A stretch of 63,048 bases of DNA from Eledone cirrhosa. Lineage: Eukaryota. The notes under the pieces were generated by a model. That model saw only the letters and a list, made by a program, of their open reading frames with translations, was not told the DNA's origin and did not search any database. The translations under genes and the position numbers were made by a program. Of this stretch, positions 3,643 to 62,580 are shown piece by piece (position 1 is the stretch's first letter; every line of letters begins with the position of its first letter). The stretch covers positions 1-63,048 of the forward strand of contig CAXHJY010000465.1 in NCBI GenBank assembly GCA_964016885.1, in the 5' to 3' direction.

Positions 3643-3857
3643 CAGAAAGTGAGGTTTTTTTTACAAAATGAAAAATAACCGAGGTGTCCTACACGAGTGA
3701 AAGTATAAAGAAAAAAAGATGAAATCGAAAATGCAACTGGAGTCTTATTTTTAAAAATATATATATTTATTTGGTTCCTTTACCAGTTTCGCAGTTCTTC
3801 TGCTTTTCAAAAGTAGAGTTGAGATGGGGGTTCTGTGGTTTTTCTCACATCTGAGAA
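3643..3857 (-). mobile_element. Short PLE-type terminal (pLTR) fragment between (TA)n tracts, carrying an HHR
   Basis: Flanked by TA runs; second copy at 38078-38275; contains HHR motif. Confidence 0.6.
3777..3814 (-). ncRNA. Minimal type I hammerhead ribozyme with U3-A8 core variant
   Basis: Minus strand: ACTT-TTGAAAA-GCAG AAGAA CTGC-GAAA-CTG-GTA-AAGG; stem II GCAG/CTGC, stem I CTT/AAG, GUA cleavage triplet. Confidence 0.6.
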
Positions 3858-3867
3858 ATATATATAT

Positions 3868-4177
3868 AAAAGAAAATGTCGCTCTACATGGCTGAATACA
3901 ATAAATGTAATCTGAGATTTTCAAATATTAATAATAACATTCGATTCGTTTGCAATTATGCAAACAAGCCTCAATTTTAAAGCCATATCAGTAGAATGAA
4001 CCCTTCATTCTTGCTCTTGTGTTGGTATGTGAAGACAAGAGCAAGAATGAAGGGTGCATTCTACTGACATAAATTGAGGCTTGTTTGCAAAATTGCAAAC
4101 GAATCGAATGTTATTAATATTCGAAAATCTCAGATTACATTTATTGTATTCAGCCATGTAGAGCGACATTTTCTTTT
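3868..4177. repeat. ~310-bp palindrome (arms 3868-4020 and 4035-4177) flanked by (TA)n; fold-back MITE or head-to-head PLE ends
   Basis: AAAAGAAAATGTCGCTCTACATGGCTG... and ...CAGCCATGTAGAGCGACATTTTCTTTT are reverse complements, with a few indels along the arms. Confidence 0.92.
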
Positions 4178-4319
4178 ATATATATATATATATATATATA
4201 TATGTATATATATAAACTGAAATGGTGTGCGTTGCGTTATTTGCTCATTGTTGTAGGGAATCGAAAGACATTAGACGGTGTATAAATTTACCAGAAGACA
4301 TCTGTTATCATTATACTCC

Positions 4320-4700
4320 GTAGTGGTGGTGGTGGTGGTGGTGGTGATGGTGGTGGTAGTGGTGGTGATAGTGGTGGTGGTGGTGGTGATAGTGGTGGTG
4401 GTGGTGGTGGTGGTGGTGGTCGTGGTGGTGGTGGTCGTGGTGGTGGTGGTGGTAGTGGTGGTGGTGGTGATGGTGGTTCGTGGTGGTGGTGGTGGTGGTG
4501 GTAGTGATGGTGGTGGTGGTGGTGGTGGTAGTGGTGGTGGTGGTGGTGGTGGTGGTGGTGGTGGTGGTGGTAGTAGTGGTGGTGGTGATGGTGGTGGTGA
4601 TAGCAGTGGTGGTGGTGGTGGTGGTGGTGATAGTAGTGGTGGTGGTGGTGGTGGTGGTGGTGGTGGTGGTTGAGGTGGTTGGGTGGTTGTGGTCGTCGTT
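4320..4700. repeat. (GGT)n trinucleotide repeat
   Basis: Directly visible. Confidence 0.97.
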
Positions 4701-4837
4701 TGAGGTGGCAATGAAGACAAACAATAAATTAGTGGCAGGTGGAAAAACGGTGACATTGTTTGTAAAAGTAGAAGCTTATGAACGAATGCAACAGATGATA
4801 ATAAATTTGATTAATTAAAGTAATAGAGAAGGCGGCG

Positions 4838-4955
4838 GACAGAGAGGGGAGGAGAGAGAGAGAGGTAGAAAGAGAGAGTGACAGAGAGGGGAGGAGAGAG
4901 AGAGGTAGAAAGAGAGAGTGACAGATAGAGAGAGAGAGAGAGAGAGAGAGAGAGC
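4838..4955. repeat. (GA)n-rich tract with short tandem duplication
   Basis: Directly visible. Confidence 0.9.
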
Positions 4956-5179
4956 GTGTGTATTGGAGTGGGTGTGGGAATGATTGTGTGACGAAATTCA
5001 CTCTGGTATCCCCGTGGTTTCTAACTGATTCACACAGCTTGATACCTTGGAGAATATCTTCGACTATAGACTGAAGTTTAAGTAAAATCTGGTAGACAGA
5101 AACAGCGTGAAATCTCTTTATATATATATATGCATCAAGAAAAATAAAACGTCGGCGTGAAGAGATTATGAATTTATTT

Positions 5180-5292
5180 GCTTTTACATATGTTTCCGTG
5201 TCTATTATAAATTGTCTATATATACTGACTACAATATATATTGTTCAATTATATGCAATACTTAATCATTTATTACACCTCATCAGAAAACC
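5180..5292 (-). ncRNA. Type I hammerhead ribozyme with long (~75 nt) stem II insert
   Basis: Minus strand: GGTTTT-CTGATGA-G GTGT [AT-rich insert] ACAC G-GAAAC ATAT GTA-AAAGC; lies in the PLE 3' UTR in sense orientation. Confidence 0.68.
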
Positions 5293-5731
5293 TATAGTAG
5301 TGTAATTCAACTATTCACTATGAGGGAGAATTCAGTACTGAGATTTTCGTTTAAGAAAATGTAAATAAGTTAAAAAATAGTACAAAATACAGTCCGTTAG
5401 TGTGATAGTAGAGAGGAGAGGGAGTGGGGGTGAAGAGTTTCACACTATCAATACGTGTGCTGTGATGTGGAACAATTATTCTTTAACCATTATTATAGGT
5501 GAAGGTTTTGACGTTTACCATATATGGGGGTAGAGAAGGTATAGGGAGAGAGACAGAGAAAGATAAGGTAGAGATTAAGAATAGGCTAGAGTGGATAGGG
5601 AAGAAAGGAATTAAGAAAATGGGATTGCTTTGAATATTACTGAATCCATTGGCTCTGAAAAGTTCAAATGCCACATGAAATGTATTAAATAGTATGTAGT
5701 AAAACCTTGGAATTAGGGATTGGATCTTGTT

Positions 5732-60296: not shown

Positions 60297-60374
60297 ATAT
60301 ATATATATATATATATATATATATATATATATATATATATATATATATATATATATATACATAAACACACCCAT

Positions 60375-60745
60375 ATACACACACACACTTTCTCTCTCTC
60401 TCTGATACACACCCAGCCAGCCACACACACACACTCTCTCTCTCTCTCTGATACACACCCAGCCAGCCACACACACACACTCTCTCTCTCTCTCTCTGAT
60501 ACACACCCAGCCAGCCACACACACACACTCTCTCTCTCTCTCTCTGATACATACCCAGCCAGCCACACACACACACTCTCTCTCTCTCTCTCTCTCTCTC
60601 TCTCTCTCTCTCTGATACACACCCAGCCAGCCACACACACTCCCCTCTCTCTCTATCTGTGATACCCCCCCCACTCTCTGATACCCCCCCACACACACCC
60701 TCTCTCACTCTCTCTCTCTGATACACCCCCAGCCACCCCCACACA
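60375..60745. repeat. TGATACACACCCAGCCAGC-(CA)n-(CT)n variable repeat
   Basis: Directly visible. Confidence 0.9.
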
Positions 60746-60857
60746 CAAGCATGTATATGTTTGGCAACTGATGGAAGGACGTCTGCCGGGTGTCAGTATA
60801 TTGGACGGCAAGACGTTCTCGCCAGTAAAAAGAGTTTTGCAATAGTAATGTTTCTCA

Positions 60858-60955
60858 TTAACTTTGCCTTTCATCCTTACGGGGTCGATAAAATAAAGTA
60901 CCAGTAATACACTGAGATAATTGCTGGCCTTGTGCCAAAAGTAGAAACAATTATA
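60858..60955 (+). mobile_element. SINE A, 3' half
   Basis: TTAACTTTGCCTTTCATCCTTACGGGGTCGATAAAATAAAGTACCAG. Confidence 0.85.
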
Positions 60956-61184
60956 ATAATGTATTGTTAATGATGTAGACTCCCTCCACAACTTGACCTC
61001 AACTCTACTTCATTCTATACCTTATCTCCATTGATGTACTGGGGGGTTGGAATCATCACTCTCTCTCTATATATATATGTGTGTGTGTGTGTGTGTGTGC
61101 GCGTGTGTGTGTGTGTGTGTGCGTGTTTGTTTGTGTGCGTGTGCGTGTGTGTGCGTGTGAGTGTGTGTGTGCGTGTGTGTGTGT

Positions 61185-61521
61185 GAAGGCGCATGGCTTA
61201 GTGGTTAGAGCATTGGGCTTGCAATTGAGAGGTTGTGAATTCGATTCTCGGACCGGGTGTTGCGTTGTTTCCTTGAGCAAGTCACTTTATTTCACGTTGC
61301 TCCAGTTTACTCAGCTGTAGAAATGAGTTGTGACGTCACTGGTGCCAAGCTGTATCGGCCATTGCCTTTCCCTTGGACCTCATCAGTGGCGTGGAGAGGG
61401 AGTCTGGTATGCATGGGGGACTATTGGTCTTCCACAAACAACCTTGCCTGGACTTGTGCCTCGGAGGAAAACTTTCTAGGTGCAAATGGTCATTCGTGGC
61501 CGACTGGGGCCAGCGCAAAGC
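61185..61521 (+). mobile_element. CORE-like tRNA SINE family B, apparently full length
   Basis: GAAGGCGCATGGCTTAGTGGTTAGAGC (A box), GAATTCGATTCTC (B box), TTCCTTGAGCAAGTCACTTTA (CORE-like); flanked by microsatellites. Confidence 0.85.
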
Positions 61522-61590
61522 TATATATATATATGTATATATATAGTGACGAAACATAAGTCAATTGCATGAACTCATAATCCTTTATTT

Positions 61591-61646
61591 ACTGGTATAT
61601 ATATTTCGATGATAGCCATTGAATGGCTATGACCTCATCAGGCAGT
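61591..61646 (-). ncRNA. Type I hammerhead ribozyme
   Basis: Minus strand ACTGC-CTGATGA-GGTC ATAGCCAT TCA ATGGCTAT CATC-GAAATATATATA-CCAGT; element ends at (TA)n near 61545. Confidence 0.68.
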
Positions 61647-61714
61647 TAGTCAGTTCTTAGATATGCCAGCTCTGTGTATATGTCTTGGGACATATATATA
61701 TATATATATAAATG

Positions 61715-62580
61715 TAAGTATGTATGTATACGTACATACATATATGTATACAGACGTACAGTAGCATGCATATATATATATATATACATACAGGTACACA
61801 TACATATATGTTGAACAAAAAGTTGACGTGGTTGCCTTAACACCGTACGGCATAAATTCCAGCTGTTCAGTTTGTTTACAAACGAACAAAGCGGGCGTTA
61901 TAATAAGCGTCCGCTAAACTGATACGTACATATATGTATGTGTACCTGTATATATATATATATATATATATATATATATATATATATATATATATATATA
62001 TATATGCATGCTACTGTACGTCTGTATACATATATGTATGTACGTATACATACATTCTTACATTTAAGTAAGTGCCGTACTAAGAGTGAGAAATGAAATT
62101 TCGTTTTCATTTTATTACAACTTATCGTTTTCGGTACGCCTGGCCGAACTCACTCGATATGCAAATTAGGCTGCTCAGCCGTTAATTTTCACAAGGAAAG
62201 TATATACTTTCGAACGTTCAACCATCTGGCAGAAGGGTATACGGTGCTAACAAGCTTGAAACTAGTACATCGTTCCTGTGTCAGTGTTGAACAAAAAGGT
62301 GACGTGGTTGCCTTAACACCGTACGGCATAAATTCAGGCTGTTCAGTTTGTTTACAAACGAACAAATCGGGCGTTATAATAAGCGTCCGCTAAACTGATA
62401 CGTACATATATGTATGTGTACCTGTATGTATATATGTATATATATATATATATATATATATATGCTTGCTACTGTACGTCTGTATACATATATGTATGTA
62501 CGTATACATACATACTTACATTTAAGTAAGTGCCGTACTAAGAGTGAGAAATGAAATTTCGTTTTCATTTTATTACAACA
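61715..62580 (+). mobile_element. Second locus of the tandem HHR unit: inverted fragment (61715-61810) plus ~1.6 units, HHR core deleted
   Basis: Homologous to 6960-7740; 62241 ACGGTGCT-AACAAGCTTGAAACTAGTACATCG lacks GATGATAGCT. Confidence 0.8.

Follow-up and report, generated by a model that had tools for sequence, protein, structure and literature searches.

Hammerhead motifs at the ends of probable Penelope-like elements

The window analyzed here is the whole of contig CAXHJY010000465.1 (63,048 bases) from the 3.0-Gb, 1,796-contig genome of the cephalopod Eledone cirrhosa. It contains recurrent motifs that probably represent type I hammerheads, each closing the 3' end of an element from one of nine or more families of Penelope-like elements (PLEs) and their noncoding derivatives. 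These elements lie against (TA)n tracts into which they were likely inserted by a PLE GIY-YIG endonuclease and reverse transcriptase (RT). A first-pass annotation of the window had listed 11 full motifs, one core-deleted copy, and three half-motifs from roughly nine families. All 15 were located, with exact low-end coordinates except that 6974 and 7490 lie 1 nucleotide (nt) before the matches, and nine repeat families (A to I) were counted.

The window has a G+C content of 37%, and tandem or microsatellite DNA occupies 26,433 of its 63,048 bases, leaving a nontandem remainder of 36,615. A type I hammerhead is defined by a CUGANGA (or U3-A8), GAAA, and UH core with three stems in type I order. 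The window motifs were evaluated with our own type I descriptor, which demands the core (canonical or U3-A8), stems I to III, and the UH, and were compared with 100 dinucleotide shuffles in which the microsatellites were held fixed. Five of the 11 full motifs satisfy this strict descriptor, with cores at 3810(−), 5286(−), 6981, 42221, and 59026, while the other six are damaged copies. Four of the passing motifs are canonical and one is U3-A8; the shuffle means are 0.02 and 0.07 (the second to be compared with all five), with a maximum of 1.

Genome-wide density and structural support

The genome was sampled as 100 evenly spaced 10-kb stretches (1 Mb) from 24 large contigs, the small contigs lying outside the sample. 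This 1-Mb sample contains 69 canonical motifs (0 to 1 in eight shuffles) and 93 motifs when U3-A8 cores are included (0 to 4), with a bootstrap range of 68 to 119 per Mb. The motifs occupy 46 of the 100 stretches and fall into 26 to 27 flank clusters. Extrapolation gives a genome total of about 200,000 to 350,000 descriptor-passing motifs, which is a count of sequences and not of active ribozymes. The motif counts are conservative, since the descriptor misses loops II longer than 110 nt and, owing to a mismatch close to where stem II begins, rejects all 30 of the full family I loci. Family copy numbers from genome searches are likewise lower bounds, with at least 981 candidates for family A at about 95%, 882 for B at 98%, 1,499 for G, and 2,497 for I, and at least 13 matches for E at 74 to 83%. 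Family C gave 21 matches in 13 of the 100 sampled stretches.

Two structural features accompany the motifs. The segment from A15.1 to U16.1 is a perfect palindrome in 51 of the 93 sampled motifs, a feature that lies outside the demands of the descriptor. Moreover, 6 of 14 stem pairs are changed on both sides among 18 variants of the B group, with a score reached by none of 500 shuffles, although the variants are related and the score therefore gives no probability. The first-pass annotation had staked its reading in part on motif density above that of shuffled sequence and on stem covariation, and both were found. As a separate observation, members of one hammerhead family lie nested in the TA tracts of another, forming clusters of 4 to 5 motifs per 10 kb (loci L126, L147, L166, L090, and L093), and several families have a loop II of 50 to 115 nt.

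Association with TA microsatellites

All 12 full or core-deleted sites of the window have a dinucleotide tract 30 to 170 nt downstream of the approximate cut position, compared with a window control of 22% within 300 nt; 10 of these tracts are TA, one is AC, and one is AG. In the sample, a tract lies within 300 nt downstream of 63 of 76 motifs, against 22% of random points and 32% of points in the same stretches, the 76 being the motifs with 1 kb on both sides after 17 of the 93 were dropped at stretch edges. An upstream tract accompanies 35 of the 76, and 70 of 74 typed tracts are TA. The association was also apparent from the tracts themselves, using a family library of 401 segments and four open reading frame (ORF) pieces from fetched loci, which covers 7.5% of the sample. 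TA clusters adjoin the families in 250 of 898 cases (28%, random expectation 14%), whereas clusters of other dinucleotides do so in 28 of 440 (6%, random expectation 12%). The association is TA-specific. The microsatellite proximity claimed in the annotation thus stands for (TA)n, while (CA)n and (GA)n were rejected as insertion targets, their adjoining clusters being below random expectation.

Among 116 single-orientation blocks, TA is found at the 3' side of 72 and at the 5' side of 40, against a background of 5%. Roughly 3% of TA clusters are carried within the families themselves (about 20 tracts of Hydra-type elements and 9 of family B, against 898), a figure based on very small numbers. 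The proposal that much of the unique-looking DNA of the window derives from such elements was overstated, as the families make up 5,028 of its 36,615 nontandem bases (14%, a lower bound given by a library built from the sample).

Parent elements of families D and F

Two hammerheads had been placed 3' of GIY-YIG ORFs, and this linkage was seen in the window for families D and F. Family D is represented by a 5'-truncated Hydra-type PLE (5131 to 6535, minus strand) with a GIY-YIG ORF at 5732 to 6535, in which CxCx5C precedes GIY-YIG, followed by a hammerhead with a long loop II at 5180 to 5294 and then (TA)n. The ORF has 55,564 genome candidates, including open frames of about 830 codons at 48 to 49%, and a protein search with the Hydra-type sequence retrieved 118 homologues, none bearing a clade name. 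Long relatives have a single ORF with RT followed by a C-terminal GIY-YIG, containing RWR, DKT, RDD, CxCx5C, and GIY-YIG without CCHH; family D relatives retain the hammerhead core and terminate in (TA)n. Motifs compared by eye match family D and its full-length relatives to the Hydra clade as described in PMC8557442. As in that clade, the hammerhead lies in the terminal repeat and insertion is in (TA)n. In Pfam, the full Hydra-type ORF has no match and the window ORF has a subthreshold GIY-YIG match.

Four ORF-intact Hydra-type copies have an ORF of 2.45 kb, and these ORFs are 96.8 to 98.7% alike; the Hydra-type protein is 813 amino acids long. Between the stop codon and the hammerhead they carry a 3' untranslated region (UTR) of 3.5 to 4.0 kb with 9 to 13 TA clusters each, so that the clade length of <3 kb, which is descriptive and not strict, does not describe them. 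Of the 45 TA clusters in the four UTRs, 44 have an aligned tract in each of the three remaining copies, a number inflated by the tendency of aligners to stack TA tracts; the DNA between the tracts is 89 to 98% alike. Two long Hydra-type copies fall in the 1-Mb sample. The hammerhead of the ORF-intact family has a 115-nt stem/loop II, predicted to form one long hairpin (L083:9300-9480; L081, L082, L084, L085, and L098).

Family F is represented by a 5'-truncated Neptune-type PLE (41482 to 42394, plus strand) with, from left to right, an inverted tail, an ORF for the linker and GIY-YIG at 41520 to 42017, a hammerhead at 42217 to 42259, and then (TA)n. Its ORF has 67,975 genome candidates. Longer copies contain RT, a CX4CxxC linker, and a C-terminal CCHH GIY-YIG, and have two alternative 3' ends; the RT matches RVT_1 with an E value of 0.00022, below the cut-off. 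Family F is assigned to the Neptune type by motif. With the Neptune clade as characterized in PMC8557442 it shares RT, the CX4CxxC linker, the CCHH-type GIY-YIG, a hammerhead (in family F about 205 nt past the stop), a tail, and a microsatellite bias.

Family B, a putative young retrozyme

Family B forms tandem and inverted arrays with a monomer of 455 to 570 nt and one type I hammerhead per unit; within the arrays, monomers measure 467 to 568 nt from cut to cut. In the window it occurs as a dimer (6955 to 7735, plus strand) with hammerheads at 6975 to 7017 and 7491 to 7533, the second with a stem I mismatch (core at 7497), a cut-to-cut monomer of 516 nt, and internal (TA)n at 7182 to 7251 and 7698 to 7735. 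A second insertion (61710 to 62579) consists of a short inverted left arm and a direct copy, with internal (TA)n at 61949 to 62004 and 62437 to 62462, and ends at the distal tail site. The core deletion reported in this copy (62241 to 62273) lies between GCT direct repeats, and the copy belongs to family B. Dispersed copies are found on many chromosomes at 98% identity, and family B is classed as a probable young tandem retrozyme.

The microsatellite is a regular component of the unit. It is present within all 133 unit intervals of 29 partly overlapping loci, and in the unbiased sample (TA)6 or more occurs in 9 of 16 B/B2 copies with both flanks. B is homologous to B2 and B3, and the (TA)n sits at the predicted hairpin apex in B, is short in B2, and is absent in B3. 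The predicted circular folds have z scores of −8.5 (B, 68% paired, 40 shuffles), −6.9 (B2), and −10.8 (B3); the TA tract adds to the fold score of B, yet B3 reaches its score free of the tract. The carried tract is distinct from the one at the insertion site, as the element ends about 50 to 61 or 109 to 126 nt past the internal tract and then enters a different (TA)n in 46 of 49 distinct ends (approximate deduplication). Such tails have been tied to two internal RT start sites (PMC11167929). Because the ends lie inside (TA)n, no target-site duplication is readable. Searches with three PLE baits gave no PLE ORF match in family B, in which two open frames of 138 to 199 amino acids cross TA tracts. 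Of four sequencing runs of unrecorded type, three showed presence only, with no information on RNA ends.

Two arrays were compared. The C2 array (L087) pairs a 10-unit arm with an inverted one of 3 or more units. All 13 units, in both arms, share a base absent from other aligned units, and their TA runs are mostly 32 to 40 nt, which is consistent with repeated copying of one template, circle or multimeric transcript alike. The C4 array (L095, L259, and L260; C4:305.628-305.658 Mb) extends over at least 30 kb, with 20 cores in L095 and TA tracts that vary widely between units. It displays a six-unit higher-order repeat, and therefore growth at the DNA level also occurs.

Other tandem hammerhead families, with units of 310, 466/467, 478, 522, and 592 nt, lack the tract (five of the six other tandem-type families seen), and a carried microsatellite was therefore rejected as a general retrozyme trait. 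Tandem loci with units of 310, 592, 522, and 478 nt were recorded, the 310-nt family also having inverted arms (L086:1-1250, L100:6450-9400, L157:600-2400, L131:6460-7050, and L152). B, B2, and B3, although their flanks have diverged, all keep an octamer, ATGCAAAT, 88 to 100 nt upstream of their hammerhead (window region 7402 to 7415; L141, L090, and L049). It may be part of an internal promoter of the small nuclear RNA type, as in newt satellite 2; a literature search gave no confirmation of the latter.

Family I, a beheaded fold-back family

The half-motifs consist of the stem II 3' arm, GAAA, stem III, GUC, and the stem I 3' arm. One belongs to a right arm with tail (6751 to 6877, plus strand; half hammerhead at 6767 to 6793). 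The other two form fold-backs, each between (TA)n tracts, in which the half-motif faces an inverted left arm that the annotation had not listed: 58681 to 58871, with halves at 58696 to 58722(−) and 58758 to 58784(+), and 60065 to 60284, with halves at 60158 to 60184(−) and 60254 to 60280(+). The same organization predominates in the 1-Mb sample, where 13 of 18 right arms have an inverted left arm.

An uninverted parent was seen at one locus and has a U3-A8 core; a canonical core for this family was rejected, as the CUGANGA pattern has no genome match. Exact U3-A8 5' cores number 207 genome-wide (control, 0), and the full motif continues at most of 30 such loci that were fetched. The half-motifs at 6767, 58758, and 60254, reported as such in the annotation, are therefore real 3' halves of a family I U3-A8 hammerhead, cut short within or close to loop II and in most cases folded back. 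A tblastn search for a PLE ORF upstream of the full hammerheads gave matches at 3 of the 30 loci, none shown to be linked. The break point is nearly constant within loop II, and most copies are folded back into palindromes resembling miniature inverted-repeat transposable elements (58681 to 58871 and 60065 to 60284; L222-L250 and L294-L323). This suggests that RT stalls or switches strand at the hairpin of stem II.

Solo copies of the remaining families

Families A, C, E, G, and H are represented in the window by solo copies of the hammerhead-bearing end. Two of these pass the descriptor: a family C element (3644 to 3857, minus strand) with a U3-A8 hammerhead at 3777 to 3817 and a family A copy (58964 to 59155, plus strand) with a minimal hammerhead at 59022 to 59057. 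The second family C copy (38078 to 38276, minus strand; hammerhead 38129 to 38169) has lost G12. The second family A copy (23081 to 23244, plus strand; hammerhead 23125 to 23160, core at 23129) has a stem II weakened by a mismatch. The family E copy (34327 to 34429, plus strand; hammerhead 34362 to 34402, core at 34367) is old, at about 80% to its relatives, with a weak, decayed stem II. The family G copy (58466 to 58657, plus strand; hammerhead 58522 to 58570) lacks G5 and G12, which are intact in some other copies, and the family H copy (61535 to 61690, minus strand; hammerhead 61591 to 61646, core at 61641) lacks the first stem I pair, which is paired in 2 other copies. The core is intact in other genomic copies of families A, B, C, E, G, and H, whereas most window copies are, judging from their sequence, probably catalytically dead.

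Proposed cycle and alternative explanations

From PMC11167929, PMC8557442, PMC4209133, and PMC7229834, the following route can be proposed. The PLE endonuclease would nick a (TA)n tract, and RT would start at one of two internal RNA sites, 50 to 200 nt past the hammerhead. Reverse transcription would usually stop early, often leaving an inverted second arm, and most insertions would for this reason consist of the hammerhead-bearing end alone. Tandem transcripts are predicted to cut themselves, chiefly in dimeric form by way of the palindromic stem III, and to yield monomers or circles, which PLE RT would copy into multimers; family B would be mobilized in trans. Each insertion would divide a TA tract in two, and further tracts, available as later targets, would come with B and the Hydra-type family. 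We tentatively propose, as quite possible, a self-feeding cycle in which retrozymes and Hydra-type PLEs carry (TA)n as a tolerated RNA hairpin apex and so deliver the repeat that their endonuclease targets. The annotation had envisaged a multifamily system using and spreading microsatellites. The elements do sit in (TA)n and two families carry it, but they are many independent selfish families and not one coordinated system.

Several observations weigh against PLE-driven insertion of cleaving hammerhead ends. A PLE ORF lies within 2.5 kb upstream in only 9 of the 93 sampled motifs (three baits), most motifs being therefore solo ends or noncoding, and most families, including A, B, C, E, G, H, and I, are tied to PLEs by architecture only. 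The annotation's assignment of the motifs to PLE termini and retrozymes is supported by the ORF linkage of D and F, the tandem arrays of B, the two-site 3' ends, and the inverted 5' arms. No autonomous partner of B was found. TA is about twice as frequent at 3' as at 5' ends, the C4 array shows higher-order structure, and aligner stacking affects the comparison of carried tracts. Furthermore, hammerhead cleavage is dispensable for PLE insertion in vitro (PMC11167929), and minimal PLE hammerheads have low activity (PMC4209133).

The 3' excess of TA would also arise if the telomerase-related PLE RT laid down the tract by copying a short AU template over and over, making each insertion a new microsatellite. 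In favor of this, TA is missing upstream of many family A copies, and element ends finish in AT-rich microhomology. It is nevertheless unlikely, as 5' sides still exceed background about sevenfold, 5' ends are blurred by nested insertions and by limits of the library, TA is absent from the end sites of read-through copies, and AT-rich DNA is preferred by the PLE endonuclease in vitro (PMC11167929). The higher-order pattern of the C4 array raises the further question of whether unequal crossover expanded a PLE end into the B arrays, which would then be DNA satellites with a passive hammerhead and TA tract and no circular RNA; local amplification has been invoked for retrozyme arrays (bioRxiv 10.64898/2026.07.22.740005). 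The dispersed young copies at 98% identity on many chromosomes, the inverted two-arm arrays with a shared private base and ends at RT-type tail sites, and the conserved fold with compensatory changes make this rather improbable.

The elements might instead move as uncut RNA, with cleavage irrelevant and the motif kept as a protein-binding or RT-positioning structure. Every genomic copy necessarily contains sequence from either side of the cut, family I ranks with the most abundant families at about 18 right arms per Mb against 207 exact 5' cores genome-wide, and insertion in vitro can dispense with cleavage, as noted above. On the other hand, about 26 flank clusters repeatedly show the catalytic core, the C3-G8/U3-A8 exchange, and a base other than G at position 17, although the descriptor selects for these, and intact masters may have given rise to the beheaded family I copies as dead ends. 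Movement without cleavage is somewhat unlikely. That low-complexity AT-rich DNA produced the motifs as chance matches is scarcely conceivable, and this reading was rejected by the shuffle comparison in the window and in the 1-Mb sample. Two of the 93 sampled motifs look like such matches, shuffles give about 1.4 per Mb, and no Rfam hammerhead was among the window matches listed (150 of 180), which were swamped by microsatellite matches; the motifs nonetheless are in about 65-fold excess over shuffles, belong to multicopy families, and hold a fixed position in their elements.

Relation to known systems

[quoted passage not shown] The repeat carried here differs in belonging to the class that is apparently targeted for insertion, which allows feedback. 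The metazoan PLE hammerheads of PMC4209133 resemble those of E. cirrhosa in being minimal type I motifs of many families, mostly solo truncated copies with close inverted pairs, and share the extra base after A9, the palindromic helix III, and the U3-A8 variant. They differ in number, at about 1,300 to 9,000 per genome compared with about 90 per Mb here, and several families here have the loop II of 50 to 115 nt. Hydra clade PLEs (PMC8557442) share the C-terminal GIY-YIG, DKT, CxCX5C without CCHH, the hammerhead, and (TA)n insertion, with RWK-like in place of the RWR found here; the clade has few families, generally <3 kb, unlike the elements here with their microsatellite-filled 3' UTR. Family B resembles non-long terminal repeat retrozymes (PMC7229834; bioRxiv 10.64898/2026.07.22.740005), which are tandem noncoding units, strongly self-paired, with one type I hammerhead each, occurring as dimers to 60-mers beside PLEs. 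It departs from them in its longer units (150 to 450 bp reported), variable (TA)n at the hairpin apex, PLE tails, and inverted arms. The word "microsatellite" does not occur in PMC7229834.

The literature already describes PLE hammerheads, U3-A8 cores, the palindromic helix III, arrays of retrozymes, and the targeting of TA by Hydra elements. Set against it, the features that vary are how dense the motifs are, the target repeat that is carried along, and the fold-back family with its beheaded copies; neither such a density nor carried microsatellites appeared in the searches made. The search found nothing on cephalopod hammerheads or microsatellite-carrying retrozymes, although Repbase and Dfam entries and supplements (e.g., that of PMC8557442, which lists Octopus Naiads) may hold some of the families. 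The 2026 curated repeat annotation of Octopus vulgaris contains neither "ribozyme" nor "hammerhead" and lists 893 recently active unclassified families of short interspersed nuclear elements (SINEs), some of which may be such retrozymes. Published counts include up to 120,000 retrozymes in axolotl, >6,000 motifs in a coral, about 5,000 in a mussel, and 9,000 in Xenopus tropicalis. Several hundred thousand hammerheads, if confirmed, would be among the densest animal ribozyme loads known, and the self-feeding cycle, if it operates, would be a direct driver of the TA-microsatellite excess and of the nested transposon clusters, and would explain, in concrete and testable terms, some of the surplus of microsatellites in a large cephalopod genome. 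The insertion anatomy of B, with its PLE tails and inverted arms, links retrozymes to the PLE machinery, and the many natural variants, such as U3-A8 cores and a 115-nt loop II, offer material for asking what role PLE hammerheads play.

Other repeats of the window

A CTGATGA..GGAAA sequence at 61386(−) was rejected as a hammerhead, as it fails the descriptor and sits in a different interspersed repeat (61190 to 61520, minus strand). This repeat, which we take to be SINE-like, has partial matches in L089 and L091. Large homogeneous minisatellites occupy 8743 to 10123, 24448 to 32090, 35079 to 35954, 51170 to 53234, and 57625 to 58348, with periods of 49, 29, 68, 25, and 39, and account for the long repetitive open frames of the window.

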